Positions 50,674 through 64,000 of a DNA stretch of 64,000 nt are shown here, piece by piece; position 1 is the first letter of the stretch; each line of letters begins with the position of its first letter. Made by a program: the position numbers and the translations under genes. The DNA lies in the NCBI GenBank assembly GCA_942493055.1, contig OW818680.1:4038406-4102405 (forward strand). Direction: 5' to 3'. The notes under the pieces are model-generated. The model did not search any database. It was not told the DNA's origin and saw nothing but the letters and a program-made list of their open reading frames with translations. The DNA comes from an uncultured bacterium. Lineage in GTDB: Bacteria; Verrucomicrobiota; Kiritimatiellia; RFP12; UBA1067.

Positions 50674-51603
50674 TCAGAAATTGATGCGTTCCTCTTCAAT
50701 CACAAGCGGCTTGTTTTTGACTTGTGTCCAAATGGCGCCGATATATTCGCCGATGATGCCGATGAAGATCAGTTGGACAGACGAGAAGAAGAAGACACCG
50801 ATGACCAAAGGAGCCAAGCCGACATTGAACTGGTTCCAATAGAGCAACTTGTATATGAAGTAGACAAGGGCTGCGATCATGCTCAGCCCGGCCACGACGA
50901 AGCCCATGAACGCCGCGAGGCGCAGGGGCAGCTTCGTGTGGTTGACAAAGCCGGTCATGGCCGTGTCATAGAGTGTCGCGAAATTGTTATGCGTCCTGCC
51001 GTGTTTGCGCGCAGCCTGCACAAAGGGGATCTCCGTGCGCTTGAAGCCGACTTCGCTGATGAGCCCCCGGAAATAGGGGTAGGGGTCATGGTATTTTTTC
51101 AGCGCCTCGATCACCTTTCGATCATAGAGGCCGAAGCCTGTGAAGTTCTGGATCTGATGGATCTCCGAACACGTCGACAGCAGGCGGTAGTAGAAGCGCC
51201 TGACCAGGAACATCAGCGGATTCTCCTTGCTCTTGGGCTTGACACCACAGACGATCATGAACCCCTCCTCCCATTTCTGAAGGAAGGTCTCAATCATCTC
51301 AGGCGGTTCTTGCAGGTCAGAGCATAAGACAACGACGGCATCCCCCGTGGTTTGCAGCAGGGCGTGATACGGGGATCGGATATGGCCGAAGTTGTTGGCG
51401 TTCAGGATGGCTTTGAACCGCCGGTCCTTGGCCGCGATCTCACGGATGATTGCCCGGCTGTTGTCGGTCGAGCAGTTGTCAGCCACGACGATTTCATAAT
51501 CGTATTGCGGAAACTTTTTGAAGACCGCCGTGATGCGGTCATAGTACTCCTGAAGATTGCCCTCTTCATTGTAACATCCGGAGACCATGCTGATTGTTTT
51601 CAT
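50674..51603 (-). CDS. GT2 family glycosyltransferase (polyprenyl-phosphate sugar transferase-like; C-terminal TM helices)
   Basis: MKTISMVSGCYNEE...IVVADNCSTDNS (GT2 DxD-type N-terminus). Two C-terminal hydrophobic helices. Confidence 0.8.
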   Translation of the reverse strand: MKTISMVSGCYNEEGNLQEYYDRITAVFKKFPQYDYEIVVADNCSTDNSRAIIREIAAKDRRFKAILNANNFGHIRSPYHALLQTTGDAVVVLCSDLQEPPEMIETFLQKWEEGFMIVCGVKPKSKENPLMFLVRRFYYRLLSTCSEIHQIQNFTGFGLYDRKVIEALKKYHDPYPYFRGLISEVGFKRTEIPFVQAARKHGRTHNNFATLYDTAMTGFVNHTKLPLRLAAFMGFVVAGLSMIAALVYFIYKLLYWNQFNVGLAPLVIGVFFFSSVQLIFIGIIGEYIGAIWTQVKNKPLVIEEERINF

Positions 51604-51643: not shown

Positions 51644-52024
51644 TCAGTCTGACATCAAAATCAATCCGTATTTCACAAACGCACTAAAATCATCTTTATT
51701 ATCTGTTGCCAGTGGAATGTTGGCAGTAACTGCACAGGATGCTATCATTGCATCAACTCGCAAGCGCCGTGCTCGGCCCGTGACATTAAAGAGTCGAGCA
51801 GCTTCTGTTATTTGGGCCTCTTCAAAGGCAACGATTCCACCTTGCAGGCAGGAGCGAACGGTCTGTATTTCTTCCTCTCCTATAGGTCCGCACAGAAACT
51901 CATACCATGCGATGGATGAGGTTGTCAGCTTTTCGCCTTGCTTCAGCCACTTTTTAACGCGCTTAGATTCCAGCGTTTCGGGGATGAGCATGCGAATCAG
52001 ATAGTTTGTGTCGAGGCAAATCAT
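51644..52024 (-). CDS. vapC: PIN-domain toxin VapC
   Basis: MICLDTNYLIRML (first acidic residue), ...ATDNKDDF (C-terminal acidic residues). 126 aa. Confidence 0.8.
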   Translation of the reverse strand: MICLDTNYLIRMLIPETLESKRVKKWLKQGEKLTTSSIAWYEFLCGPIGEEEIQTVRSCLQGGIVAFEEAQITEAARLFNVTGRARRLRVDAMIASCAVTANIPLATDNKDDFSAFVKYGLILMSD

Positions 52025-52311
52025 GATTTGCGCCAGTTTTTGCGATCATCCTTGGTTGTCTGTAAATACAACTCGGCGTCTTCGCGAACAATCGATCCTG
52101 TTTTGTGGTAGTTTTCGAGGCGTGATAACGGTGACACATCTGTTCCTAGACTCTCGCTTTGATTGACAAAAGCGAGCGAACGCCGCACGACCTCTGCCTG
52201 AGATACGCGCCACCGTGCAGCAAGGTTTTTCAGTGTGAACATCGTGGCCCGATCAAATGAAAACGTCGTTCTATATTGAGTCATTTGCATAACATCACTA
52301 TATACCATCAC
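52021..52311 (-). CDS. vapB: Ribbon-helix-helix antitoxin (VapB/CopG-like)
   Basis: TTFSFDRATMFTLKNLAARWRVSQAEVVRRSL is an RHH pattern. ATGA overlap with vapC and with the upstream radical-SAM gene. Confidence 0.6.
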   Translation of the reverse strand: MMVYSDVMQMTQYRTTFSFDRATMFTLKNLAARWRVSQAEVVRRSLAFVNQSESLGTDVSPLSRLENYHKTGSIVREDAELYLQTTKDDRKNWRKS

Positions 52312-53384
52312 TTTTCATTAATCAAGTCCTCTTTGGAGAAAACCTCGTTCCACGGCACGGGCAGGGGCTTGCCATAGATGCGCCCGGCGATGTATTTGTC
52401 GATGAAGGGTCTGCTCTCGGCCATCAGGCAGGTGTTGATGTGCTTGCCGAAGAACTTGATGTTCATGCCGCGTTCGATGATGTCCTTGAGCGGCTCGTTA
52501 AAGATATTGCCGAGGGAGAGGTGCATATAGGGGCAGGGCATCACGTCGCCGTACTGGGTGATGGAGATCATGCGCTTGACCGCGATACACCCCAGATCCA
52601 GTCCGTAGGAGGGCGTCAGATGGGTGAAGACCGCATAACTTTTCTCCAGCTCGCGCATGTAGGCCATGTCGTCCGGGGTGACAAGCGAATCGTAGTTGCC
52701 CTCCCATGCGCCGACGGGCTTCGCGTAGGTGACAAACGTGCCGACCCCTTTAGACTTGGCGAATTCGAGGTAGTCGATGAACTCCTGCGTATGGATCCGC
52801 TGCTTGGTCACGACAGTGGAGAGGATGAGGTTGAGTCCCGCGTTCAGGCAGGCGTCGATGGCGCGCATGCAACGGTCAAAGGAGCCCGGCGCATGGCGGA
52901 AATCGTCGTGCTCTTTCGCGTTGAGGCTGTCGAGGCTGAGCTGGATCTTGTCGACGCCGATGGCTTTGAGATGCTTGGCCTTCTTGTCGTCGAGCAGCCA
53001 GCCGTTGGAGTCCGAGGTGATGTAGAACTTCTGGGGGTCGATGGCGGCTACCAGTTCATCAAAGTCAGGAAACACCAAGGGCTCGCCCCCTGTGATCACT
53101 ATGTTGGCGAGACCGAGTTCATCGGCTTGACGCGAGAGTTCCTTGACATCCGCAATCGTGAACGAACGGGTATCTTTCTTGCCTTGGAACCCTTTGATGG
53201 AGCAATGGTCGCATTTGAAATTACAGCGGTAATTGTACTGGAACTGAATGATGGCAATGCTCTCGCCGCGTTTGATCTTCTCGTCAAACTGGAGAATCTT
53301 CTCGTAGACGCGCGGCTTCTCCAGTCGCAACTGGTCGCGTTTGGCGTTTTCAACAGGTTTGAGTGCCTCTTGTTTGTTTGTCAT
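52308..53384 (-). CDS. Radical SAM enzyme with SPASM/twitch-like C-terminal Cys motif
   Basis: CNFKCDHC is the CxxxCxxC motif. GGEPL. C-terminal GCIAVKRM...CPYMHLSLGNIF is anSME/SPASM-like. Confidence 0.8.
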   Translation of the reverse strand: MTNKQEALKPVENAKRDQLRLEKPRVYEKILQFDEKIKRGESIAIIQFQYNYRCNFKCDHCSIKGFQGKKDTRSFTIADVKELSRQADELGLANIVITGGEPLVFPDFDELVAAIDPQKFYITSDSNGWLLDDKKAKHLKAIGVDKIQLSLDSLNAKEHDDFRHAPGSFDRCMRAIDACLNAGLNLILSTVVTKQRIHTQEFIDYLEFAKSKGVGTFVTYAKPVGAWEGNYDSLVTPDDMAYMRELEKSYAVFTHLTPSYGLDLGCIAVKRMISITQYGDVMPCPYMHLSLGNIFNEPLKDIIERGMNIKFFGKHINTCLMAESRPFIDKYIAGRIYGKPLPVPWNEVFSKEDLINEK

Positions 53385-55279
53385 TGAGCGTTTCCTTTGA
53401 GGGTTGACATCTCCAGTGGTTCTGCAAGTTGACAGATGTCGAAGATTTTTTTGACATGCGCGTACTTCATGCGAATCAGCCCGTCGATCTGGCTGTAGTA
53501 AACCGGGATGGCCACGATGACCACCGGGATGTCCTCGGTCTGGATGATGTCCGGGAAGTGGATGCGCTTGCCGTAGAGATCCATCATGGATTTCGTTCCC
53601 GAGATGTCAACGGGGTAGACGTTCGGGTCATGCAGGACCTCGGAATGCTTAAACAGGTCGGCGGTGTGGTAGTTGATTCCCCAGACAGCAACTTTGCCAT
53701 GCGTCTCAAGCAGTCGGGTGATGTTGTCGTCGATGTTTGTCCGGATCACGTCGGGCAGGACGATGTTGTAGCGCTGTCCGCACGCCTTGCAGCCCAGGAA
53801 GTTCGTGGTGAACAGCTTGATGTTGTCCCAGCGGTTCGCATGGCGGCAGGCGGTGCAGGTGCCCGAAACGGAGATGCGCCCCATTTTGCAGTCGATGCTG
53901 TTGACCTCCACGGTGGACATCACCTTCGCCAGCGTCATCGGCGCCTCCATGATGTTCCGGATGAGAATCGCAAACTCTTCGTCGGTCAACTTGGAAACCT
54001 TGATCTGAGGGCAGCCGTCCTTGAGGAACTGGACCTTGTCTTTGATGATCCCCTTTTCACAGGCATACTTGTACAGATACGAGCCCGGATAGACGGTGAT
54101 GAGGTTCAGGTTGATTTTGTACTCGGCGTGGGCCCGCCACCAGTTGAGCGTATTGTTGGCAGTCTCCCAGGTCTCCTCGATATCGCCGAAGATGAAGGCC
54201 CCTTCCATGGAGATGCCGGCGTCATAAACCATCTTCAGCGTGCTTTCGATCTGCTCGACCGTTGTATGCTTCCGCATGCTCTTCAGGATGCGATTGTCCG
54301 CGCTTTCGAGGCCGAACGACATGACGTCGCAGCCGCCCTCTTTCAGGATGGTCAGCAGTTCAGGGGTCATGCAGTCGACACGGAACTGGGCCCACCAGCG
54401 CACATTGTACTTTTTGATCCGCTCACAGAACTCCTTGACGCGTTGAATGTTGTTGGAGAAGAGTTCATCAGCCAGGCAGATGTAGTGGATGTCGAATTTG
54501 GCTACCATGTAATCGAGTTCGGCGAAGAAGCTGTCGAGCGACCGCTGCCGGTATTTGTTGCCGACCGTGTGGAAGCAGAAGGTGCAGTTATAGGGACATG
54601 AGCGGCTGGCGATCATGAAAACCGTGTTCTTCCGGTTGAGTCCGCTGATGCTGGGGGAGGAGTCGAAAAATGCTTTCAGGTCGAACCCTTCATAGTCCGG
54701 CCAGGCAAGCTCATCGAGATTCCGTATTTCCTTGCGCGGGGGTGTCGTGTGCCAGGCCGAAGCGGGCGTGCGATAGATCAGCCCCTCGACCGTCGCCGGA
54801 TCACCTCCGGTCTCCAGGATCCGGCAGAGTTCAACGGCAGTGATCTCGCCTTCGCCGACGACGCCGTAATCCGCGTATGCGAGGGCCGTCATCGCGGGCT
54901 CGGGATCGCTTGTGATGATGCCGCCCCCTACGATGGTAATCACTTCAGGCTTCGCGCGCTTGCTGGCTTCGATCACACTGCGCAACGTGCTGTATTGGAA
55001 GGAGAGCCCGCCTGTTGCAACAACATCGATGTCGCGCGTCTTAATTTCGTGGCAGAGGATGTCAGCGACTTCGCCATCCCGGTGGTTCAGGTTGAGCGCT
55101 GTGACGTTGAAGCCCGCCTTCTTTAGCGCAGCCGAGACATAGGCGATGCCGAGCGGGAAGGAGTAGCCGTCTCCGACATTTTGAACCAGGCGGGGCATGA
55201 CCAGCAGAAAATTAAGTTTTTTGGGAGTGGTGACCGAAGGTGTGCTCATGGGTTCCTTTTTTTCGTGCAGGGCGTTCAA
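53381..55279 (-). CDS. Cobalamin (B12)-binding radical SAM enzyme (class B-like) with an extra C-terminal zinc-ribbon domain
   Basis: N-terminal B12-binding Rossmann (LLVMPRL...GIAYVSAALKKAGFNV...VVATGG). SRSCPYNCTFC is the radical-SAM motif. C-terminal CTACRH...CKAC. Confidence 0.8.
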   Translation of the reverse strand: MNALHEKKEPMSTPSVTTPKKLNFLLVMPRLVQNVGDGYSFPLGIAYVSAALKKAGFNVTALNLNHRDGEVADILCHEIKTRDIDVVATGGLSFQYSTLRSVIEASKRAKPEVITIVGGGIITSDPEPAMTALAYADYGVVGEGEITAVELCRILETGGDPATVEGLIYRTPASAWHTTPPRKEIRNLDELAWPDYEGFDLKAFFDSSPSISGLNRKNTVFMIASRSCPYNCTFCFHTVGNKYRQRSLDSFFAELDYMVAKFDIHYICLADELFSNNIQRVKEFCERIKKYNVRWWAQFRVDCMTPELLTILKEGGCDVMSFGLESADNRILKSMRKHTTVEQIESTLKMVYDAGISMEGAFIFGDIEETWETANNTLNWWRAHAEYKINLNLITVYPGSYLYKYACEKGIIKDKVQFLKDGCPQIKVSKLTDEEFAILIRNIMEAPMTLAKVMSTVEVNSIDCKMGRISVSGTCTACRHANRWDNIKLFTTNFLGCKACGQRYNIVLPDVIRTNIDDNITRLLETHGKVAVWGINYHTADLFKHSEVLHDPNVYPVDISGTKSMMDLYGKRIHFPDIIQTEDIPVVIVAIPVYYSQIDGLIRMKYAHVKKIFDICQLAEPLEMSTLKGNAQ

Positions 55280-56412
55280 ACGGCCTCCAAACCGGAGTCG
55301 CGCAAAATAGCGATCGCCATGCGCGAACCGAATTTCTTGCGAATGATGGCGGCGACCTCATCAGAGTAGGCAGCGGCCATGACAATGATTGCCGCGACGG
55401 GGTCTGTGGCGAGCGTGTCAGGCGCGACAATCGGGATGTGCGTGGAAGGCGTGTAGCGTCCCTGCTTGAACGGTGCGGAGTCCACCACATACTTGATTGA
55501 GTCGCCCAGGTCCGCCAAGGCCAGGACAGCGAGCGCCTGATGGCCGGCACCCCACACAGCGACATTCTTGCTTCCATGGGTTGCCACGAAGCGGGCCAGC
55601 TCGCTTTTAAGGTGAGCTTGTTGGCTACGGAAGGCCGACAAGTCAGTGGGCGTGCGCTTGCGGACCACGGATGAAATAATGTAGTCGTGCCAGATCGCCT
55701 GTGTTTCGATGACCTCGAAGCCATTGCGCTCCAAGAGGGCGTTGAGGGTCTCGCGGGTAAAGTAGAAGAGGTGGTCGCCGATGAATTCGGAGAAGAGGTT
55801 TTTCTTGAGCATCATGTCGAAGTTCGGGACCTCAATCAGTCCTACCGCGTGCTCCGCAAGGTTTGCGTGAATGCCCTGCAAGGTCGCGTTCGGGTTGCAC
55901 AGGTGCTCCAGAAAATTCATGATGAAGAAACCGTCAAAAGGCGCGTTGACGAGTTGGACAGCAGGACTTTCAACGAAGACCTGCTCAACGTTCAGGCCGG
56001 CCTTGACGCAGTGTGCTGCGGAGTCCTCGCCGAACTCGGTGCCATAAACAGCAGCGCCTGCCTGTTGCATGAGCGAGAGGTATTCGCCCTTGCCACAACC
56101 GATTTCCATGACCTTTTTTCCTTTTAGACCGTAACCCTCCACGAAAGCCTTGAACTGTACCTTTCGGAACTCGCCCATCTCTGGTGAAAAGGCCGCTGCG
56201 CGGATCACTTCTCGCCAATAGGGGACAGGGTCACTGTTCAGTTGCACGAGTCCGCACAGCGAACACTGGCAGATCTCGAGGTCGCAGCCTCGGTCGGCTG
56301 CGACTGTGGTGGCGTCAGGCAGGTGCTGTGCCGCTTTGGGCATATTCGAGTAGGTGAGCAGCGGTTCACTGAAGAACCCGCCTCCACAGACTCGGCATAA
56401 GTTTACAGGCAT
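55276..56412 (-). CDS. Sugar C-methyltransferase-like SAM methyltransferase (N-terminal Zn-ribbon, class I MTase core, C-terminal C-methyltransferase domain)
   Basis: CRVCGGG...CSLCGLVQL is the zinc-ribbon. VMEIGCGKGEYL is motif I. C-terminal VAVWGAGHQ Rossmann-like domain typical of TylCIII-type enzymes. Confidence 0.75.
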   Translation of the reverse strand: MPVNLCRVCGGGFFSEPLLTYSNMPKAAQHLPDATTVAADRGCDLEICQCSLCGLVQLNSDPVPYWREVIRAAAFSPEMGEFRKVQFKAFVEGYGLKGKKVMEIGCGKGEYLSLMQQAGAAVYGTEFGEDSAAHCVKAGLNVEQVFVESPAVQLVNAPFDGFFIMNFLEHLCNPNATLQGIHANLAEHAVGLIEVPNFDMMLKKNLFSEFIGDHLFYFTRETLNALLERNGFEVIETQAIWHDYIISSVVRKRTPTDLSAFRSQQAHLKSELARFVATHGSKNVAVWGAGHQALAVLALADLGDSIKYVVDSAPFKQGRYTPSTHIPIVAPDTLATDPVAAIIVMAAAYSDEVAAIIRKKFGSRMAIAILRDSGLEAV

Positions 56413-56963
56413 AAAGGAGTCCTCCTGGTTTGTGTACGTTTCAACAGCTCTTTAAACGCAGGGTTGGTGCAGATATACGGACGATAGATTTCATGGACGG
56501 GCAGCAAGGTGTCAGGACAGTGGGTGTGCCATTGGAGAAAGCCTGTCGTGGTAGGGGTCAGGCCAGTGTTGACGGGGATGAAACTTTCAGGCAGCGAGCA
56601 TGCATACAGAAAAGAGATGAAGTGCGAGCGCGACTTCTGCTCGGGAAGGATGATTTGGTGAAGTGCGATGGGGGTTGGGTCAAACTCAACCGGTGTCCCA
56701 AGTTCCGTGGCGGCTACTTTCAAAAGTCGTTGCTCGAAGGTTTCTCTGAACCGGATGATGCCGCCGGGGATGTGCCAGCCCTGGCCGGAAAAGGCGTCGT
56801 TGCGCCAGGACAGCAAGGTGCGTCCGTTGCTGTCTCGCACGAGCAGATCGACATTCACCATGGGCGTGATGCGGCTTGCAAAGAGGAAAACCTCCTCAGG
56901 GAGACCCACGGTAGGGTCAACAATCTGTTGCTCGAGAAAAGAGATAGCATCAGGGATGGTCAT
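56403..56963 (-). CDS. NUDIX hydrolase (GDP-sugar hydrolase-like)
   Basis: NUDIX box GGIIRFRETFEQRLLKVAATELG. Confidence 0.65.
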   Translation of the reverse strand: MTIPDAISFLEQQIVDPTVGLPEEVFLFASRITPMVNVDLLVRDSNGRTLLSWRNDAFSGQGWHIPGGIIRFRETFEQRLLKVAATELGTPVEFDPTPIALHQIILPEQKSRSHFISFLYACSLPESFIPVNTGLTPTTTGFLQWHTHCPDTLLPVHEIYRPYICTNPAFKELLKRTQTRRTPLCL

Positions 56964-57832
56964 AGAAAGTCGGGGTTGAGCAGGTTTCGGTTCGCGTCAT
57001 GCCAGCGATAAACGGTTTCGATGGCTTTGGTGATCGGGGTGAACATGAAGCCGCCGAGTTCAGCGAGCAGGCGCGAGTTGTCGCCGCTGTACTCGATACC
57101 GAGGCCTGGGGTCTTGGCGATAATGTCGAGCTGCTTTCCAGAAGTCTGGAGCACCACGCGCGCGAGATTCGTGAAGGCATGCGCGTGACCGGAGCAGACG
57201 TTGTAGGTGTGATGCTGGGGCGAGGCGGTGAGGAACCAGCGCACAATGCGGGCGAGGTCGCCCACGTACAGGTGGTCGAACCGGCGATTCTGGTTCATCA
57301 CAAGCGGCTGGTCCAGCACGGCCCTGCAGCAGGCGTTGGAGAGAAAGCGCGTCCGCCAGTCATCATCCGGGCCGAAGAGGCCGAAGAGTCGCAGGTTGTA
57401 GATCTTCGCCGAGGCTTGCGCATGAAGGTTCATGAGGTACTTCGAGAAACCATACGGGTCGTGCGGGACGTGGCTGTCGAAATAGCTCTCCGGCATTTTG
57501 GGGATCCAGTGCGGCCGACTGAACTCGGCTCCGGAGCCGAAATAGAGCATGCGTCCGAAGTGTCCCTGGCAGCGGGCGATATGGAAGAACATCTTGAGGT
57601 TGTTTTCGAGCACCAGGCCCGGGTTCTTGGTGGAGTGCTTGGGCGCGGCGTCGTAGGTGGCTGCGTGGATGACGACATCATACTTGTGGACGCGGAGCCG
57701 GTCTTCGACGCGGGCGGAGTCGAGGAGGTCAAGCGTGGCGCGGCCCAAACAATCGACCGCATGGTCGGCCTTGAGGTGCTCCAGCAGATTGCGGGCGATG
57801 AAGCCGTTGCCGCCTGTGATAAGAATTTTCAT
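56960..57832 (-). CDS. NAD(P)-dependent sugar epimerase/reductase (extended SDR)
   Basis: MKILITGGNGFIARNL is the glycine-rich NAD site. Confidence 0.8.
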   Translation of the reverse strand: MKILITGGNGFIARNLLEHLKADHAVDCLGRATLDLLDSARVEDRLRVHKYDVVIHAATYDAAPKHSTKNPGLVLENNLKMFFHIARCQGHFGRMLYFGSGAEFSRPHWIPKMPESYFDSHVPHDPYGFSKYLMNLHAQASAKIYNLRLFGLFGPDDDWRTRFLSNACCRAVLDQPLVMNQNRRFDHLYVGDLARIVRWFLTASPQHHTYNVCSGHAHAFTNLARVVLQTSGKQLDIIAKTPGLGIEYSGDNSRLLAELGGFMFTPITKAIETVYRWHDANRNLLNPDFL

Positions 57833-57835
57833 AGT

Positions 57836-59644
57836 TTATTCGGGGAGCGGTGGAATGATCATGTTCGCGCGGAACTCGTCGCGGTCCAGGAAGGGCCAGA
57901 GGTCTTCGAGGGGTTTCGAGGCCATGCTGCCGTCCTTCCGCTGATAGGACGAGAGCTTCGGGCTGGTCGGCTGATTCTTTGGGACGACTACATCGCAGAT
58001 GCACGGTCCGGGGGCGGCCAAAATCTCGCGGATCTTCTCCCGGAGGCCGTCATTACTGACCAGTCTGCAGGTTGGAAGTTTGTAGGCGGTTGCAATCTGG
58101 CAGGAGTCCGGAAGCGTGAGTCCGCTCTCCGGGTCGCTGGCCACAAAGTGGCCGTTGAAAAAATTCTGCTGGGAGCCTCGGATTGAGCCATAGCCCTGGT
58201 TGTTGAGGACGAAGAGCTTGACCGGCAATTGAAAGCGGTGCAGCAGTTCGAGTTCTTGAATGTTCATCTGGAACCCGCCGTCGCCGTCGATACACACGGT
58301 GCGATGGTTGTGAGCTGCGATACATCCGCCGATTGCAGCGGGGAGGCCAAAGCCCATGGGCCCCAAACCTTCGGTGTTGAAGACGCGTTGCCCCAGCTTG
58401 ACCTTGAACGCCTGCATGGTCAACTCGCTGCACTGTCCCGAACTGCCGGGGATGAGCAGGTCTTCAGCGGTCATCTCGCCGGAAATGGCATCCATGAGGG
58501 CATAGAGATCGACCGCGTCGGTCCGGTTCCAGTGCTCTTTTGTGATGAGCGGATACTGTGTCTGCCAAGCCCTTACGCGCGCGCGCCATTCCGAAGGGTC
58601 TGGCATGGATGCGCCCGCGAGTTGATTCAACATCTCGCTGAGAAAAAGACGCGCGTCGCTGGCAATCTTTTCGGCAATCGGCATCTCCATTTTATTGATT
58701 TCCGCTGCATCGATATCGACCATGATCTTCTGAGCGCCACGGGCAAAGTTCGGATGGTTGTAACCGGTCTGGCCGTGATCGAGTCGGGCGCCGATCACGA
58801 GGAGCGCATCCGCGTTCTGCTGTGTAAAATTGGCTGCGCGTTGGCCGATCGCGCCGGGACGGCCCGCGTAGAGGGGATCATCGTCTGCGAGGAAGTCAAT
58901 CGCCTTCCAGGTCAGGAGGACCGGAATATTCAGCTTTCGGATCACGGCGTTGAATTCGGGCAGGGCAGTCGCGAGCCGGACGCCATTGCCTGCGAGCAGG
59001 ACCGGGCGTTGGGCAGTGCGCAGGATCTCAAGCGTGCGACGGACCTGCTCCTTGAGGCGCTGCGCGTTGACGCTGGGCAAGAGGCCTTCCTTGCCGGGGT
59101 CAAAGCGTTCCAATGTCTGCACGTCGATGGTGGCGGCTTGGACATCGAGCGGGATATCGATCCAGACCGGACCTGGGCGGCCGGTGCGGGCGAGATAGAC
59201 CGCCTTCTCCAGATGGTAGCGGATCGTGAGCGGGTCGTGTACAAGGATGGCGTATTTGGTGATGGGCTTGACCAGGTCGATGATGGGAATTTCCTGAAAG
59301 CCCATCTGGCGCACCCCTTTGCCAGTCGAGAGATCTGCGCGTTTCACTTGTCCCGAGAGCATGAGCAGGGGCGTGGAGTCAAGCCAGGCGCCTGCGACAC
59401 CGGTGATGGCGTTGGTTCCGCCCGGCCCTGTCGTGACGAGGGCGACGCCGAGGTGGCTGGTGCATTGGGAGTAAGCATCCGCGGCGATGGCTGCGCCCTG
59501 CTCGTGAAGGTTGCAGATGAATTGGAGTCTGCGTTCAGACCCCAGGGATTCCACCAGGTGCATGCAGCCGCCACCGGGGAGCATAAACACGTGCCGGACA
59601 CCTTGGTCGGCGACGAACTGCATCACATAATCAGAAAGTTTCAT
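57836..59644 (-). CDS. Thiamine-diphosphate-dependent enzyme of the acetolactate-synthase family (YerE-like branched-sugar synthase candidate)
   Basis: N-terminal Pyr domain (VFMLPGGGCMHLVESL...LHEQGAAIAADAY). C-terminal PP domain (GSSGQ...DGDGGFQMNIQEL). Confidence 0.8.
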   Translation of the reverse strand: MKLSDYVMQFVADQGVRHVFMLPGGGCMHLVESLGSERRLQFICNLHEQGAAIAADAYSQCTSHLGVALVTTGPGGTNAITGVAGAWLDSTPLLMLSGQVKRADLSTGKGVRQMGFQEIPIIDLVKPITKYAILVHDPLTIRYHLEKAVYLARTGRPGPVWIDIPLDVQAATIDVQTLERFDPGKEGLLPSVNAQRLKEQVRRTLEILRTAQRPVLLAGNGVRLATALPEFNAVIRKLNIPVLLTWKAIDFLADDDPLYAGRPGAIGQRAANFTQQNADALLVIGARLDHGQTGYNHPNFARGAQKIMVDIDAAEINKMEMPIAEKIASDARLFLSEMLNQLAGASMPDPSEWRARVRAWQTQYPLITKEHWNRTDAVDLYALMDAISGEMTAEDLLIPGSSGQCSELTMQAFKVKLGQRVFNTEGLGPMGFGLPAAIGGCIAAHNHRTVCIDGDGGFQMNIQELELLHRFQLPVKLFVLNNQGYGSIRGSQQNFFNGHFVASDPESGLTLPDSCQIATAYKLPTCRLVSNDGLREKIREILAAPGPCICDVVVPKNQPTSPKLSSYQRKDGSMASKPLEDLWPFLDRDEFRANMIIPPLPE

Positions 59645-59656
59645 GGTCGTGTTCTT

Positions 59657-60235
59657 TTAGAGGTGAGGCGCGGAGACGAGGTCCGTCAGGCGCGAAAGGA
59701 GGTCTTGGACCGAGGCGTCCCTCGCCGTGTTCCAAGGCTGGGGGTAGAGGAAGGCCGTGAGGCCGAGTTGCTGAGCGTCAAGCGCATTGGCTTCGCTGTC
59801 CTCGACGAGCACGTCAATGGTGCCGCAGCGTGCGAGAAACTGACCTTTGGTCGTGTCGTACGGCGGGTGGCTATCAAAGGGTCGCGGGGAGGGGACAAAG
59901 GTAAACGACCTGATCCAGTCGCCAAAATGTGTAAAGGTCCAAGAGGCTGAAACAGAGGCGAAGGCGCGCGGCACAGCGGACAAGGCCACATGGCGGGCGC
60001 GGTCGCCGTGCTGTCGGAACCACTCCAGAACAGCGGCGTTGGGTTGCAACGCGGCATAACGCGTGGCTCGGAATACATCGAGCGAGGCGAGGTACTGGTC
60101 GAGTGAGAGGCCCACCAGTCCGTCCGGCGGATTACGGATAAGCGAACGATAACTGGGAGGGCCCGGCTGTGTGGCAAGCCAGGACTCAGTCAGATTATTC
60201 AAGACGTCATCAATATCCCAGGCGATTGTGATCAT
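59657..60235 (-). CDS. HAD-superfamily phosphatase
   Basis: MITIAWDIDDVL is HAD motif I (DxD). Confidence 0.6.
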   Translation of the reverse strand: MITIAWDIDDVLNNLTESWLATQPGPPSYRSLIRNPPDGLVGLSLDQYLASLDVFRATRYAALQPNAAVLEWFRQHGDRARHVALSAVPRAFASVSASWTFTHFGDWIRSFTFVPSPRPFDSHPPYDTTKGQFLARCGTIDVLVEDSEANALDAQQLGLTAFLYPQPWNTARDASVQDLLSRLTDLVSAPHL

Positions 60236-60242
60236 GGCAAAT

Positions 60243-61769
60243 CTACGAGATCGACTTCTTCAGCCAGTCGGCCCAGAAGGTCATTTCAGTTTTCCGGTGG
60301 GTGTTCAGCGCGATAGAGGCGTCGTCGTAGTAGGAGTCGTTTGTGTAGTGGGTCGTGGAGACCTCTTCGAAGATAGCGCCTGTGGGTGACGAGAAACTAT
60401 GGGGTTTGCCACGCTCGACAGTGATGATGTCTCCTGACTGGCACGTTTGTGTCTGGCCATCAAGCGTGAGTTGCATCGTCCCGTAGAGGATGTGGAAGGT
60501 CTCCTCTTTGAGCTTATGCGCATGGCACGGATTTTCCTGCCCGGGGAGCAGGAGGATGATCTTCTTGCAGTACTCGCGATTGATGCAATTGATGATCGAG
60601 CAGCCCCAGCGCTCGAACTGGTCAAGACCATAGTGATGCGACAACTCCAGCGTGAGTTTATTACGCAAGGTGACTTTGCTCTCTTTCAGGAGCATCGCCA
60701 GTTTTTTGATGATGGCCAGAATGCGTTCGCGCTGGTCGACAATTTTCAGGTTATCGCGAAGAATGGGCGCATTCGGCTCAACAGGTTTGAGCAGCGTATA
60801 TTCCACGTACTTGGAGAGGTCATTCGCAAGGAGATGTCCAGGGATATTGGGGATGGCCAGGAAGGTCTCCTGCCGGGTCACCCGAGTGTCCGCAGCCAAG
60901 GCCTTCTGCGCGAAGACACCGCGTTTGAGGCCGATCAGATCAGCGGCTTCCTTTTCGGAGATCGCGCGACGTTGCTGTTTGACGCCGCACATGGCGAGCG
61001 TCTCTTGCACGGAGAGCAGCCAGGTGTGGAGCTGTTCCGGCGTCGAGGAGTATGGGTTGTTGGGCGCTGATGGCGTGGGCACCCCCACATGCCGTTCGAA
61101 AGCGGTTGCGCCTTTAGCAACGGCCACTTTGACGGCGTCCGCATTGGTAGGCTCCTCGTGTGTTGAGAAGCCGATCGCAATTTCGGCATAGCGTTCACGG
61201 AAGAAATCGAGTTGATTCAGCTCCAGCTCGTTGGCGGGGGTCGGGTAGGAGCCTACGCAGTGCATGAGGCATAAGGGCTTGTCGCGGTGTTCCAGGAAGG
61301 AGACGACGCGGTCGATATCATCTGTCGGCACGCCAGCAGTCGAGGCGACGACCGGAAGGTTGGTCTGCACAATGCGCTCTAAAAGGGGCCAGTCCGTGAA
61401 GGAGCAGCTCGCGATTTTGATGATGTCAAACCCTTGCTCTTCAATCAGGTCAACCGAGACTTCGTCAAAGGGCGTACAGGCGGTCAGAAACCCCAGTTTC
61501 TTGGCTTCCGCTTTGAGTGTCATGAACGCTTCAGGAGAAAGACGTGTCTCCTGGAATCGTTTGACATACTTGATGTCCTGCCGATTTTTGAAATCCGGAT
61601 GAATAAAGGTGTCGAGATTGCGGTATTGGAACTTGATGGCAAAGGTGAACGGGAAATCCTTGACCGCCTCATGGCATTGACGAATGATGGCAAGCCCATG
61701 GTTGAGATCGCCCATGTGGTTATTCGCCATTTCAAGAATAAACAGATTTGAGTAAGGGAAGGCAGACAT
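60243..61769 (-). CDS. NeuB-family nonulosonic/ulosonic acid synthase fused to SAF and C-terminal cupin domains
   Basis: ILEMANNHMGDL is the NeuB IAEIGxNHxG-like block. TIM-barrel length. C-terminal cupin-like GxxHxH region (PCHAHKLKEETFHILYG). Confidence 0.75.
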   Translation of the reverse strand: MSAFPYSNLFILEMANNHMGDLNHGLAIIRQCHEAVKDFPFTFAIKFQYRNLDTFIHPDFKNRQDIKYVKRFQETRLSPEAFMTLKAEAKKLGFLTACTPFDEVSVDLIEEQGFDIIKIASCSFTDWPLLERIVQTNLPVVASTAGVPTDDIDRVVSFLEHRDKPLCLMHCVGSYPTPANELELNQLDFFRERYAEIAIGFSTHEEPTNADAVKVAVAKGATAFERHVGVPTPSAPNNPYSSTPEQLHTWLLSVQETLAMCGVKQQRRAISEKEAADLIGLKRGVFAQKALAADTRVTRQETFLAIPNIPGHLLANDLSKYVEYTLLKPVEPNAPILRDNLKIVDQRERILAIIKKLAMLLKESKVTLRNKLTLELSHHYGLDQFERWGCSIINCINREYCKKIILLLPGQENPCHAHKLKEETFHILYGTMQLTLDGQTQTCQSGDIITVERGKPHSFSSPTGAIFEEVSTTHYTNDSYYDDASIALNTHRKTEMTFWADWLKKSIS

Positions 61770-62048
61770 GCTTAATTAACTCCTGAATTTACATCCAACA
61801 TACGAATCCATACGCATGAAGTGTGCCATATACGTCTGGTGAAGTCAAGGGACTCATTGTTTTCAAAAACCCGCCAGCCAGCTAAAGGGTCTGAAGGGTG
61901 GCGCTATATATGCGAGATGGTTAGTGGATGCGTTCATTTTTGATCGGACGCTGGCCACCTTTGCAAATCTCGATCATTTCGGTGATCTCAACGAAATGAT
62001 CCTCTACACGCTGACCGCTGACGAAACACGCGGTACGCGCCTTGAAGT

Positions 62049-63368
62049 CTAAAGGTTTTGAATGGTGGCGGTCATATAGGCGAGGTGGCGAGCGGTCATT
62101 CCTGGGTAGACGCCGATCCAGAGGCTCTGGTTCATAATGGTGTCGGTGTTGAGCAAGGGGGAGGCGATACGATAATCGGTGCCTTCGCACAGGGATTCAA
62201 AACAGGGATGGCGCGTGAGGTTGCCGGCAAAGAGATTTCGGGTCTGAATCTTGTTCTTTTCCAGATGCTCGGCGAACTGGTTGCGGGTGACGGGGGCATC
62301 GGGGGTCAGGGTCATCAGAAAGCCGAACCAGGAGGGCTCGGCGCCTGGCAGTGGCTGCTGCACGCGAAGCCAGGGGATATTCTTGACGCCCTCATGCAGG
62401 CTGGCGTAATTTTCCTTGCGCTTTTGGACAAAGGCGGGGAATTTCTCAAGCTGGGCGCAGCCGATGGCGGCTTGCAGGTCTGTGGCTTTCAGGTTGTAGC
62501 CGAAATGGCTGTAGACATACTTATGGTCGTAGCCGAAGGGGAGCGTCCCGAACTGGCCTGTGAAGCGGCAGCCGCAGGTATTGTCCTTGCCGCTGTCGCA
62601 CCAGCAGTCACGTCCCCAGTCGCGCAGGGAGAGCATGATCTTGTTCAGCAGGGGGTTGTCTGTATAAACCGCGCCGCCTTCGCCCATGGTGATGTGGTGC
62701 GGGGGGTAGAAGCTGGAGGTCCCGATATCGCCGAAGGTGCCGGTCAATTGGCCGGCGATGCGCGAACCCAGCGCATCGCAGTTGTCCTCGACGAGCCAGA
62801 GATTATGCCGGGTGCAAAAGGCCTTCACGGCTTGAACATCAAAAGGGTTGCCCAATGTGTGAGCAATCATCACGGCCTTTGTCTTGGGGGAGATGGCCTG
62901 TTCGAGTTGGCTCACAGCGATATTGGCCGTGTCGAGTTCAACGTCCACAAAGACCGGCACGGCGCCGTACTGGATGATCGGGGCGACGGTAGTCGGAAAG
63001 CCGCAGGCGATGGTGATGACTTCATCCCCGCGTTTAATCTGGCGCTCCTTGAGCAGGGGGGAGGTCAGGGCCATGAAGGCCAGCAGGTTAGCTGACGAGC
63101 CTGAGTTGACGAGCAGGGAGAAGCGCACGCCCAGATAATCGGAAAGCTGTTTTTCGAAGGCGCGGGAATAGTCCCCGTAGGTCAGCCAGAAGTCGAGCGA
63201 GGCCTCCACCAGGTTCGTCATCTCAGCCGCATCGAAAACGCGGCCCGCGTAATTCACGCGGGTCTCGCCTTCCACGAAAGGCTTGTGCTGCTGCGGGGCA
63301 TGGACGAGCTGATAATACTCCGCCACCTTGTTCAGAATTTCAGTTTTGAGTGTTTCTTTAGTGCTCAT
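62049..63368 (-). CDS. rfbH: CDP-6-deoxy-D-xylo-4-hexulose 3-dehydrase (E1, DdhC/RfbH) of the DegT/DnrJ/EryC1 PMP-dependent family
   Basis: Start at MSTKETLK. AAT-fold. Cys-rich CWCDSGKDNTCGC, typical of the E1 [2Fe-2S] site. Confidence 0.8.
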   Translation of the reverse strand: MSTKETLKTEILNKVAEYYQLVHAPQQHKPFVEGETRVNYAGRVFDAAEMTNLVEASLDFWLTYGDYSRAFEKQLSDYLGVRFSLLVNSGSSANLLAFMALTSPLLKERQIKRGDEVITIACGFPTTVAPIIQYGAVPVFVDVELDTANIAVSQLEQAISPKTKAVMIAHTLGNPFDVQAVKAFCTRHNLWLVEDNCDALGSRIAGQLTGTFGDIGTSSFYPPHHITMGEGGAVYTDNPLLNKIMLSLRDWGRDCWCDSGKDNTCGCRFTGQFGTLPFGYDHKYVYSHFGYNLKATDLQAAIGCAQLEKFPAFVQKRKENYASLHEGVKNIPWLRVQQPLPGAEPSWFGFLMTLTPDAPVTRNQFAEHLEKNKIQTRNLFAGNLTRHPCFESLCEGTDYRIASPLLNTDTIMNQSLWIGVYPGMTARHLAYMTATIQNL

Positions 63369-63798
63369 TTTTAGCATCCGAATAACGCGAACCACACGAA
63401 TGTTCAATGGGAATTTCTGTATTGAGAATACGCGTAATGGCTACTTTGGGATAGGAAGAAAAATTGACAAGCAATCCCAACTCATAGCCTGTTGCCTGAA
63501 GATAATTGATCACTTGGGCTCTATGTTCTTCCGTAAGGTTTTTAGATGCTTTCAGCTCAACGATAATTTTTCCATGACAAATAAAATCTGGAATATATTT
63601 TTGTTTTAACGGGTCTCCTTTGTAAGAAAGAGCTAGACCTTTTTGTGCTTCGAAAGGGATACTTCTCAGCACAAATTCTTTCTCTAAGCACTCTTGGTAG
63701 ACAGCCTCAAGGAAGCCATTACCCATAATATTGTGCACTTCAAAGATTGCGCCTTGAATGGAATAGCACTCATCTTTAAAGAGAATTTTTTCGTTCAT
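63358..63798 (-). CDS. GxxExxY-family (PD-(D/E)xK-like) small protein, inserted cassette
   Basis: MNEKILFKDECYSIQGAIFEVHNIMGNGFLEAVYQECLEKEF...KIIVELKASKNLTEEHRAQVINYLQATGYELGLLVNF matches the family consensus. The C-terminal tail is read through into the inverted repeat. Confidence 0.7.
   Translation of the reverse strand: MNEKILFKDECYSIQGAIFEVHNIMGNGFLEAVYQECLEKEFVLRSIPFEAQKGLALSYKGDPLKQKYIPDFICHGKIIVELKASKNLTEEHRAQVINYLQATGYELGLLVNFSSYPKVAITRILNTEIPIEHSCGSRYSDAKNEH
63369..63404. repeat. Left 33-bp inverted repeat of the GxxExxY cassette
   Basis: TTTTAGCATCCGAATAACGCGAACCACACGAAT is the reverse complement of 63811-63846 (1 mismatch). Confidence 0.6.
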
Positions 63799-63810: not shown

Positions 63811-63846
63811 CGTGTGGTTCGTGTTATTCGGATGCTAAAAAAGAGT
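63811..63846. repeat. Right 33-bp inverted repeat of the GxxExxY cassette
   Basis: ATTCGTGTGGTTCGTGTTATTCGGATGCTAAAA. Confidence 0.6.
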
Positions 63847-64000
63847 ACGCTTCGATATCTGACAAACACAACTGTTGAGGACTGATGTGTTCCATCTGCC
63901 GATACCAGGAGACCGTGCGCTGGATCATGGTTTCGAAATTCCACGTGGGGGACCACTCCAGCTCTTTTTTCGCCTTGTTGATCTTGAGGCGCAAAATACC
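63824..64000 (-). CDS. rfbG: C-terminus of a CDP-glucose 4,6-dehydratase-like NAD-dependent sugar dehydratase; the gene continues past the window end
   Basis: Translation ...ILRLKINKAKKELEWSPTWNFETMIQRTVSWYRQMEH matches the C-terminal helix of DdhB/RfbG-type dehydratases. The stop codon lies inside the right inverted repeat. Confidence 0.55.
   Translation of the reverse strand, partial: GILRLKINKAKKELEWSPTWNFETMIQRTVSWYRQMEHISPQQLCLSDIEAYSFLASE

Follow-up and report, generated by a model that had tools for sequence, protein, structure and literature searches.

In the scheme described for acyl-branched deoxysugars, CDP-4-keto-3,6-dideoxy-D-glucose (CDP, cytidine diphosphate) and an aldolase-derived alpha-keto acid are joined by a thiamine diphosphate (ThDP) enzyme of the YerE type, after which the branch ketone is reduced and the sugar is transferred to a glycan (Steitz et al. 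2022, PMC9306805). The operons of the YerE, ErwE, MMAR_2332 and MyGE pathways (yersiniose A, erwiniose, caryophyllose, gastriose) combine RfbG and RfbH, a ThDP enzyme resembling acetolactate synthase, a short-chain dehydrogenase/reductase (SDR) and a glycosyltransferase. The same combination was found in a 64-kb stretch of DNA from an uncultured bacterium of the Kiritimatiellia (contig OW818680.1, positions 4,038,406 to 4,102,405), referred to below as the window. YerE-type clusters have a class II pyruvate aldolase, whereas the cassette of the window has a protein with a NeuB-like and a cupin domain, which presumably uses phosphoenolpyruvate (PEP) and would give longer keto acids. Beyond the genes of YerE-type clusters, it contains a Nudix gene, a C-methyltransferase of the TcaB9 type, two radical S-adenosylmethionine (SAM) enzymes and a polyprenyl-phosphate glycosyltransferase of family GT2. 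The subject of this analysis is the trio formed by the C-methyltransferase and the two radical-SAM enzymes (52308-56412, all three open reading frames, ORFs, on the minus strand). One of the latter is of the cobalamin (B12) type and the other has a C-terminal domain of the twitch type.

We consider it probable that the trio is the tailoring end of an operon which makes a CDP-activated 4-C-acyl-branched 3,6-dideoxyhexose and hands it to a lipid carrier for use in a surface glycan. An initial annotation had assigned the trio to sugar chemistry, and this assignment is supported by synteny with CDP-hexose genes and by the B12 enzyme's C-terminal domain. The three ORFs it had predicted were present at the positions given there, on the minus strand, and each domain that it had named was confirmed by Pfam.

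Transcription of the trio runs from the C-methyltransferase through the B12 enzyme to the twitch enzyme. The gene order of the operon, as transcribed, is RfbG, RfbH, NeuB-like/cupin, a 192-residue protein, ThDP enzyme, SDR, Nudix, C-methyltransferase, B12 enzyme, twitch enzyme, a toxin-antitoxin pair and GT2. The dideoxy-sugar genes, described initially as downstream of the trio, therefore lie upstream in the direction of transcription. Operon genes are packed with gaps of 3-12 nt or with overlaps; Nudix and methyltransferase genes overlap by 10 nt. Translational overlap had been proposed for the whole trio. It was found between the B12 and twitch genes, which share a true ATGA junction; the methyltransferase and B12 genes overlap only if the latter starts at the TTG at 55279. 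An ATG lies 30 nt inside (55249) and is preceded by an AAGGAA motif. It would give a product of 622 residues and leave a 26-nt gap after the methyltransferase stop codon. This ATG is the likelier start, because of the upstream motif and because the resulting length is like that of P0002, the closest homologue on a long contig. A scan of the window with Rfam gave no match, and in a promoter and terminator scan the terminator counts were at chance level and uninformative.

To place the cassette among its relatives, one genome from each of 185,579 species was scanned, which gave 458 matching stretches; 79 loci were returned. A locus was taken as orthologous if it spanned at least 15 kb and its B12 enzyme shared at least 50% identity with that of the window (22 loci). 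Presence of each gene was scored by tblastn, because in high-GC DNA shadow ORFs distorted longest-ORF calling, which for example missed the window's Nudix gene as well as two genes (NeuB and methyltransferase) in L001, the nearest locus. The twitch enzyme was present in 21 of the 22 loci, NeuB-cupin and the ThDP enzyme in 19 each, and the C-methyltransferase in 17. Any of RfbF, RfbG and RfbH was found in 16 and RfbH itself in 14, as many as had the Nudix gene (14); the SDR was detected in 11, GT2 in 9 and a homologue of the 192-residue protein in 8. Lineages represented were Lentisphaerota, Planctomycetota, Fibrobacterota, Omnitrophota, Bacillota, Myxococcota, Magnetococcales, bacteria of the candidate phyla radiation (CPR) and a DPANN archaeon. 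Because the same genes are syntenic across so many phyla, the arrangement is far beyond chance.

The nearest locus, from an uncultured member of the Lentisphaeraceae, has a B12 enzyme 85% identical to that of the window and contains the whole cassette, in the order NTP-transferase, 4,6-dehydratase, DegT/RfbH, E3-like reductase, NeuB-cupin, a 195-residue protein, ThDP enzyme, SDR, Nudix, methyltransferase, B12 enzyme and twitch enzyme. Near-whole cassettes, with B12 enzymes 54-63% identical, were also seen in a Nanoarchaeia archaeon (L009, a 623-kb contig) and in three CPR/Patescibacteria loci (L013, L025 and L053). That both a DPANN archaeon and Patescibacteria have it implies that the cassette has passed between domains of life; it is most likely a horizontally mobile operon of about 10-12 kb.

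The twitch enzyme was 47-90% identical in 30 other loci and embedded in a sugar cassette every time. In L002 (10001-12964) a single protein of 987 residues, P0021, is an end-to-end fusion of a B12 enzyme (70% identity) and a twitch enzyme (75%); its gene adjoins that of a further B12 paralogue, which is not fused. Two other types of cluster contain more distant B12 paralogues (39-49% identity). The first, from Desulfobacterota, has Nudix and twitch genes and several further radical-SAM and FkbM-type methyltransferase genes, so that Nudix and twitch co-occur in two different types of cassette. In the second, mainly from Bacillota, RfbF, RfbG and RfbH are joined by reductases, an epimerase resembling RmlC and another SPASM enzyme in three copies. 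Of the loci, 19 contained two or three B12 paralogues.

The C-methyltransferase and the B12 radical-SAM enzyme

The first product of the trio (55276..56412, minus strand, 378 residues) was identified by its Pfam and PDB matches as a nucleoside diphosphate (NDP)-hexose C-methyltransferase of the TcaB9/TylC3 type. Its three-domain make-up agrees with the initial annotation and consists of a zinc-binding Cys4 site (about 56236-56412), a class I SAM-dependent methyltransferase domain (about 55705-56145) and a C-terminal domain (about 55345-55647). The second of these matched Methyltransf_23 (PF13489, E 6e-19, 68.7 bits) and the third Methyltransf_14 (PF08484, E 1.5e-15, 57.8 bits for a cut-off of 23.5, residues 256-356). 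Matches to Methyltransf_13 (weak) and to PF08421 (18.3 bits for a cut-off of 31.3) were below the Pfam thresholds. The best PDB matches, at E about 1e-22, were TcaB9, D-mycarose 3-C-methyltransferase (4rv9) and a "sugar 3-C-methyl transferase" (5t64).

To assess conservation, 18 homologues from related loci were aligned. They keep the EIGCGxGE motif, and the zinc cysteines C6, C9, C50 and C53 are 100% conserved and align with those of TcaB9. The active-site residues of TcaB9 (H181, Y222, E224, H225 and Y76) are kept in part, its catalytic histidine included. H170, D213 and H214 align with H181, E224 and H225 and are each at least 93% conserved, whereas the positions aligned with Y76 and Y222, which are sugar contacts in TcaB9, are not conserved. 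The enzyme shares the three-domain layout of TcaB9, TylC3, KijD1 and D-mycarose 3-C-methyltransferase, and it aligns with TcaB9 over 2-240 and 258-355, but identity to TcaB9 is low. From the kept zinc site and H170, D213 and H214, together with the unconserved Y76 and Y222 positions, it belongs to the TcaB9/TylC3 kind and probably acts on a different sugar. TcaB9-type enzymes act on dTDP-linked substrates in antibiotic pathways, whereas its substrate would likely be CDP-linked and its pathway that of a surface glycan.

The second gene (53381..55279, minus strand) encodes a class-B, cobalamin-type radical-SAM enzyme of 632 residues from TTG 55279, or 622 from ATG 55249. Pfam placed a B12-binding domain at about 54827-55171 (PF02310, E 9e-19, 67.9 bits for a cut-off of 32.1, residues 37-151) and the radical-SAM core at about 54140-54613 (PF04055, E 1e-17, 65.1 bits). 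The CPYNCTFC motif supplies C228, C232 and C235 of a CX3CX2C site and is 100% conserved among homologues. An AlphaFold2 (AF2) model built on 30 homologues reached a mean confidence (pLDDT, predicted local distance difference test) of 87. When it was compared with solved structures by Foldseek, the top matches were TsrM (E 4e-24), AprD4, CysS, MgmA, TokK and OxsB (2e-17), over 415-560 columns. The first 440 residues or so superpose on these class-B structures, and by this model the enzyme has the class-B architecture. More than 2000 database homologues exist, of which typical members are 600-625 residues long and 55-92% identical.

Two further domains follow this part in the protein. A Cys4 zinc ribbon occupies residues 455-505 or so (53765..53917, minus strand; C475, C478, C497 and C500). 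It was part of the initial annotation and is borne out by 98% conservation of its CxxC...CxxC cysteines in 94 homologues; they are also invariant in A1, the AF2 model is rich in beta structure here, and weak zinc-ribbon and Elf1 matches were obtained. The second domain, of the alpha/beta type, follows at about residues 503-614 (53438..53773, minus strand) and was absent from the initial description. It was modelled with a pLDDT above 90 over most of its length.

This alpha/beta domain is homologous to the adjacent C-methyltransferase's C-terminal domain, as judged from the sequences. The two are 28% identical over 101 residues (BLASTP, E 2e-4), and profile-profile alignment with hhalign placed the domain on methyltransferase residues 255-369 with 98.1% probability (E 6e-14). 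As controls, 15 families from the same loci were aligned in the same way, among them four SDR Rossmann families and the B12 enzyme's own B12 domain, and the maximum was 3.7%. The assignment rests on these two comparisons, since a single-sequence Pfam search with the C-terminal 180 residues or so gave just weak zinc-finger matches and no family, and a profile of the C-terminus searched against PDB sequences gave just a weak Elf1 zinc-ribbon match.

In TcaB9 structures the dTDP-sugar reportedly lies between the SAM domain and the C-terminal domain. The Methyltransf_14-like domain is a candidate sugar-nucleotide-binding module, and the B12 enzyme looks like a sugar-nucleotide C-methyltransferase in which the SAM-binding fold has been swapped for a B12/radical-SAM module. 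With TcaB9-type enzymes it shares the C-terminal domain and a zinc site but not the class I fold, and the zinc site is differently placed: at the N-terminus in TcaB9, directly before the C-terminal domain in the B12 enzyme. Among proteins of related clusters, hhalign detected domains of the same kind in at least three other enzyme families: one further radical-SAM family has it N-terminally (95%), another C-terminally (89%), and an SDR carries it at the N-terminus (93%); examples are L007 12969-14213 and L065 5468-8082. The domain looks like a portable module that serves as a substrate handle.

The initial annotation had compared the enzyme with the class-B methylases GenK and Fom3. By description, GenK, GenD1 and Fom3, which methylate sugars or CMP-activated substrates, have the same N-terminal B12-binding Rossmann domain and CX3CX2C core, and their expected chemistry, methylation of an unactivated carbon, is the one proposed here; Fom3 too recognises a cytidylylated substrate. 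The strong fold likeness, over about 440 residues, is to TsrM, TokK, CysS and MgmA. None of the NCBIfam models among the matches listed corresponds to GenK, GenD1 or Fom3, whose context is that of aminoglycoside and phosphonate clusters, whereas the B12 enzyme lies among CDP-deoxyhexose surface-glycan genes. It also differs from class-B methylases by the added zinc ribbon and the Methyltransf_14-like domain, which Pfam does not report. To our knowledge, this combination is found in no characterised class-B enzyme.

The B12 enzyme most likely transfers a methyl group from methylcobalamin. It might instead act on the sugar without methylating it, by rearrangement, ring contraction, carbocycle formation or an AprD4-like 1,2-diol dehydration, in which case the product would be a caryose-like sugar, carbocyclic or rearranged; we regard this as unlikely. 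No curated NCBIfam family claims the enzyme, and the first two matches, both far under cut-off, were HpnJ (144 bits for a cut-off of 578, E 4.5e-42) and BchE (142 for 481). The scores of HpnJ, BchE and the methylase PhpK (132 bits) are alike and so span non-methylases, which tells against a methylase. The same is true of the best PDB sequence match, AprD4 (E 1e-16, rank 5 by fold), a non-methylating dehydratase, because of which the class-B fold alone is no proof of cobalamin use. OxsB was a strong fold match as well. For HpnJ and calditol synthase a radical rearrangement, ring contraction or carbocycle formation has been proposed, and for OxsB it has been shown. HpnJ, calditol synthase, OxsB and AprD4 act on sugar substrates, which they rearrange or dehydrate without methylation, and share the architecture of the B12 enzyme. 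Radical-SAM enzymes have moreover been implicated in the formation of sugar-derived cyclopentanes, and the origin of caryose is unknown (PMC9092360).

Several points favour methyl transfer nevertheless. The contexts of the non-methylating enzymes (hopanoid, archaeal lipid, nucleoside, aminoglycoside) differ from that of the B12 enzyme, and their scores, far under the family thresholds, are no better than those of the methylases PhpK, KedN5 and the C-methyltransferases of ribosomally synthesized and post-translationally modified peptides (RiPPs). By fold, the methylases TsrM, CysS, MgmA and TokK are equal or better. The domain swap with the C-methyltransferase suggests an analogous methyl transfer, as do the two or three copies of the enzyme that stand beside FkbM-type methyltransferases in related clusters.

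The proposed pathway to an acyl-branched sugar

From the observed domain identities, synteny and domain homology we infer substrates, regiochemistry and product as follows. RfbF, RfbG and RfbH would give CDP-4-keto-3,6-dideoxy-D-glucose. RfbG, the CDP-glucose 4,6-dehydratase, is represented by a C-terminal fragment cut at the window edge (63842..64000, minus strand), which is 45% identical over 55 residues to the dehydratase of L001 (tblastn, E 7e-10). RfbH (E1, CDP-6-deoxy-D-xylo-4-hexulose 3-dehydrase; 62049..63407, minus strand, likely ATG start at 63368, where the tblastn alignment begins) matched the NCBIfam equivalog NF011936 at 702 bits for a cut-off of 423, and Pfam DegT_DnrJ_EryC1 at E 5e-89. 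A PDDEXK_3 (GxxExxY-type) ORF (63358-63798, minus strand, E 3e-40) lies between the two. Identity to the L001 proteins is 57% for RfbH and 62-88% from NeuB through twitch, which points to recombination with a breakpoint where RfbH and NeuB meet (61770-63407; 1385-3417 in L001), the place where L001 carries its E3-like gene.

An alpha-keto acid would next be provided by the NeuB-like/cupin protein (60243..61769, minus strand, 508 residues), in which a PEP-condensing domain (NeuB, E 1e-39) is joined to a metal-type cupin (Cupin_2, E 7e-11). It occupies the place of the class II pyruvate aldolase of the YerE scheme, which is absent from the cassette, and is a candidate for the synthesis of the alpha-keto-acid donor, probably from PEP and an aldose and thus longer than aldolase-made ones. 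Its NeuB-like domain belongs to the subfamily of an uncharacterised structure, 3G8R (E 5e-115), apart from the true sialic, legionaminic and pseudaminic acid synthases (true NeuB, 1e-14 to 1e-25).

The acyl anion of this keto acid would be placed on C4 of the sugar by the ThDP carboligase (57836..59644, minus strand, 602 residues; Pfam TPP_enzyme_N, M and C), a candidate branching enzyme of the YerE/ErwE type. It is acetolactate-synthase-like and falls under every cut-off of that family (TIGR00118, 378 bits for a cut-off of 538). Its gene adjoins that of the SDR (NAD(P)-dependent reductase/epimerase; 56960..57832, minus strand, 290 residues; Pfam Epimerase, E 2e-28, and RmlD_sub_bind), which, on the scheme in PMC9306805, is a candidate YerF-like reductase and would reduce the branch ketone.

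The trio would tailor the sugar. The TcaB9-type enzyme would methylate a carbon alpha to a keto group by way of an enolate; candidate positions are C2' in the acyl branch and, in the 4-keto sugar, C3 and C5. The B12 enzyme would hold the nucleotide sugar by its zinc ribbon and Methyltransf_14-like domain; its 5'-deoxyadenosyl radical would abstract a hydrogen, and the methyl group of methylcobalamin would most likely be delivered to an unactivated sp3 carbon, for example the C6 methyl or the branch terminus. The twitch enzyme would act on this substrate too, in one more radical step, which could be an epimerisation, the oxidation of an alcohol, a dehydration or the formation of a C-C bond. Finally, the finished sugar would be loaded onto polyprenyl phosphate by GT2 for the decoration of a surface glycan.

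Because the ThDP carboligase and the NeuB/cupin gene, both omitted from the initial annotation of the trio, define the class of pathway, the sugar should be acyl-branched rather than merely a C-methylated dideoxysugar. By analogy it is most likely of the yersiniose/erwiniose/caryophyllose class, and the product is most likely an undescribed, heavily carbon-branched deoxysugar.

A number of points weigh against this pathway, which is drawn from genes and predicted structures. The ThDP enzyme is a candidate branching enzyme by analogy with YerE, and the NeuB-type supply is a candidate role, as an enzyme of this type is not known to feed such a pathway. RfbF falls outside the window, in which no E3/AscD reductase was found; such a reductase is nearby in just 2 of the 22 cassettes. 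The Methyltransf_14 homology was seen neither by single-sequence Pfam nor by the profile search of PDB sequences, and binding of a nucleotide sugar by this domain, a candidate function, is judged by analogy with TcaB9. For P0021 the source is one metagenome-assembled contig, on which the fusion may reflect a one-base assembly error at the ATGA junction.

It may also be that the trio acts, in place of the CDP-sugar core, on another intermediate of the pathway: the free aldose or ulosonic (alpha-keto) acid from which the side chain is formed, or the polyprenyl-phosphate-linked sugar that GT2 makes. Free-sugar and keto-acid intermediates are implied by the NeuB-like enzyme and by the Nudix protein (56403..56963, minus strand, 186 residues). 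The latter is of the GDP-mannose mannosyl hydrolase type, with a degenerate box KVAATELG (Pfam NUDIX, E 1e-6; NCBIfam GDP-mannose mannosyl hydrolase subfamily, E 5e-8, under cut-off), and is a candidate NDP-sugar hydrolase. In addition, GT2 often directly adjoins the B12 gene, and the twitch enzyme is without a recognisable nucleotide-binding domain. However, the methyltransferase and the B12 enzyme both carry a domain typical of NDP-hexose enzymes, and B12 paralogues sit with RfbF, RfbG and RfbH in clusters without NeuB, ThDP enzyme and GT2. We consider action on such an intermediate rather improbable.

A larger product can be envisaged as well. Two units, each derived from a hexose, would be combined by the cassette into one monosaccharide, branched and C-methylated, with 14 carbons or more, and polyprenyl phosphate would carry it in export. 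A CDP-deoxyhexose would be C-methylated by the enolate methyltransferase and tailored by both radical-SAM enzymes, and the Nudix protein would free the tailored sugar as an aldose. The NeuB-like/cupin enzyme would extend this aldose with PEP to an ulosonic acid of nine carbons or more, which the ThDP enzyme would decarboxylate and add to C4 of a second CDP-4-keto-3,6-dideoxyglucose. If so, the B12 enzyme would represent the first cobalamin radical-SAM family on nucleotide-activated sugars of primary cell-surface glycans, and the Methyltransf_14-like domain would be a portable handle for nucleotide sugars, fused to SDRs and other radical-SAM enzymes too. This is a doubtful extension of the acyl-branched pathway.

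The twitch radical-SAM enzyme

The last gene of the trio (52308..53384, minus strand, 358 residues; core at about 52773-53231) encodes a radical-SAM enzyme with a twitch, or partial SPASM, domain. Its CNFKCDHC motif supplies C54, C58 and C61 (CX3CX2C), and Pfam matched Radical_SAM (E 2e-25) and SPASM (PF13186, 27.8 bits for a cut-off of 21.5). Only three C-terminal cysteines are conserved (C266, C284 and C319, about 52428-52589, minus strand), each at 100%. The seven-cysteine SPASM motif for two auxiliary clusters was not found in the enzyme, which can hold one auxiliary cluster and not two, because just these three cysteines are conserved. The C-terminal domain was modelled poorly, with a pLDDT below 50. 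Conservation within the family is unusually high: all of the 120 best matches in the database are at least 71% identical.

In its build the twitch enzyme resembles MoaA, BlsE and BtrN, in which the radical-SAM core is followed by a short domain at the C-terminus that holds a single auxiliary cluster; identity is about 22%. In PDB sequence searches MoaA (1e-15) and BlsE (1e-13) were found, with SkfB and PqqE, and MoaA was also first by Foldseek. In MoaA three cysteines hold the cluster and one iron is left free for the substrate. BlsE is the cytosylglucuronate decarboxylase, and the substrates of MoaA and BlsE are a nucleotide or a nucleoside-sugar.

Both radical-SAM enzymes could in principle mature a peptide (RiPP) or a cofactor, with the sugar genes as mere neighbours. 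The top NCBIfam matches of the twitch enzyme were AhbD (112 bits for a cut-off of 500), NirJ2, MoaA (100 for 284) and several peptide maturases, and ApyD and RiPP C-methyltransferases were among the matches of the B12 enzyme. Yet these matches lie 3-5 fold under the family cut-offs, and no curated NCBIfam family claims the twitch enzyme. Firm clustering of the two proteins with characterised non-sugar enzymes, named in the initial annotation as an argument against sugar chemistry, was likewise not observed, the NCBIfam scores being far under the cut-offs. Among the cassette's ORFs none was conspicuous as a precursor peptide, and there was no cofactor-pathway enzyme among the cassette proteins scanned. 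The synteny with CDP-hexose, ThDP-enzyme and glycosyltransferase genes crosses phyla, and the B12 enzyme carries a sugar-methyltransferase domain. We regard maturation as very improbable, and the RiPP-maturase and cofactor-maturase readings were rejected on scores and context.

That the twitch enzyme is an anaerobic sulfatase-maturating enzyme (anSME) for the sulfatases of the window, 10-25 kb away, is hardly credible: it belongs to the SPASM/twitch superfamily, at least four sulfatases and no formylglycine-generating enzyme were seen among the ORFs scanned, and a fold match to anSMEcpe could be detected (rank 42, E 4e-8), but three auxiliary cysteines are conserved where an anSME needs seven or eight, for two clusters; no solved anSME appeared in the PDB sequence search to E 0.01, which did find MoaA, BlsE, SkfB and PqqE, nor was an anSME among the 25 best NCBIfam matches; its conserved partners, in CPR bacteria and a DPANN archaeon too, are the B12, Nudix, NeuB-cupin and ThDP enzymes; and its gene shares the ATGA overlap with the B12 gene, to which it is fused in P0021. 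The anSME identity was rejected on the cysteine count, the lack of a sequence match to a solved anSME and the sugar-cassette context, in line with the initial annotation, which had disfavoured it from operon context. In L001, sulfatases flank the cassette where annotated.

Significance and other features of the window

The individual folds and the class of pathway are already known. What appears to be undescribed is the chimeric architecture of B12/radical-SAM enzyme and C-methyltransferase domain, paired with a three-cysteine twitch enzyme, and the presence of both radical enzymes within an acyl-branched-sugar cassette with a NeuB-like keto-acid supplier. In full-text literature no characterised homologue was found for either radical-SAM enzyme, nor a paper in which such enzymes are connected with CDP-sugars, O-antigen or branched sugars, which is not proof of absence; a paper on the Kuenenia S-layer glycan gave no genetic link to the cassette. 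As far as we know, those cobalamin radical-SAM enzymes that have been characterised and have sugar substrates are from antibiotic or lipid pathways, and none is known to work on nucleotide-activated sugars for cell-surface glycans.

The B12 family is large and phylogenetically very broad, and it comes with a built-in clue to its substrate, the C-terminal domain of C-methyltransferases. The cassette extends the recently recognised pathways for acyl-branched sugars. If the proposed pathway is true, radical C-methylation or rearrangement joins the surface-sugar chemistry of bacteria and archaea, and unknown sugars are predicted in little-studied anaerobes (Lentisphaerota, Planctomycetota, Omnitrophota, CPR, DPANN). 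The enzymes would be new biocatalysts for C-C bonds on sugars, and increments of +14 Da read as "methyl" in glycan mass spectrometry need not be O-methyl.

The remaining genes of the operon were also inspected. The GT2 enzyme (50674..51603, minus strand, 309 residues, hydrophobic C-terminal segments) is a polyprenyl-phosphate glycosyltransferase of the ArnC/GtrB/PgfS type; it matched Pfam Glycos_transf_2 and, under cut-off, NCBIfam PgfS (E 1.5e-54) and ArnC (E 7e-35). In 16 other loci, counted without a limit on their size, homologues (44-87% identity) adjoin the B12 or the twitch gene, and a GtrA-like ORF accompanies GT2 in three related loci. Between the twitch and GT2 genes lies a VapBC-like pair (51644-52311, minus strand), with a 96-residue ORF resembling ribbon-helix-helix proteins and a 126-residue PIN ORF (PF01850, E 2e-11). 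It looks like an insertion into the operon, because GT2 directly follows the radical-SAM gene in L004. After GT2 come accD, accA and dnaX. The 192-residue protein (59657..60235, minus strand) had no match in Pfam, NCBIfam or PDB and is unassigned to a family; its N-terminal WDIDDV motif is reminiscent of phosphatases of the haloacid dehalogenase (HAD) type.

Elsewhere in the window, five sulfatases had been announced, of which four were confirmed (26194, 27519, 37373 and 41892) and the fifth was not recovered among 20 large ORFs at 1-48 kb. They belong to a locus for the degradation of sulfated polysaccharides (21557-43262), with GH43, GH88, a PL14-like protein and esterases, in which several ORFs of 330-660 residues have no Pfam family. 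The segment 675-11596 may be a defence island; it contains an MmeI-type restriction-modification enzyme (675-3611), a 1053-residue Laminin_G/HZS_alpha protein and a SNF2-family helicase (8798-11596). Next to it, a single ORF of 3045 residues covers 11869-21006 on the plus strand, with a GC content of 63-66%, versus about 55-58% elsewhere, and a GC skew of -0.21 to -0.28.

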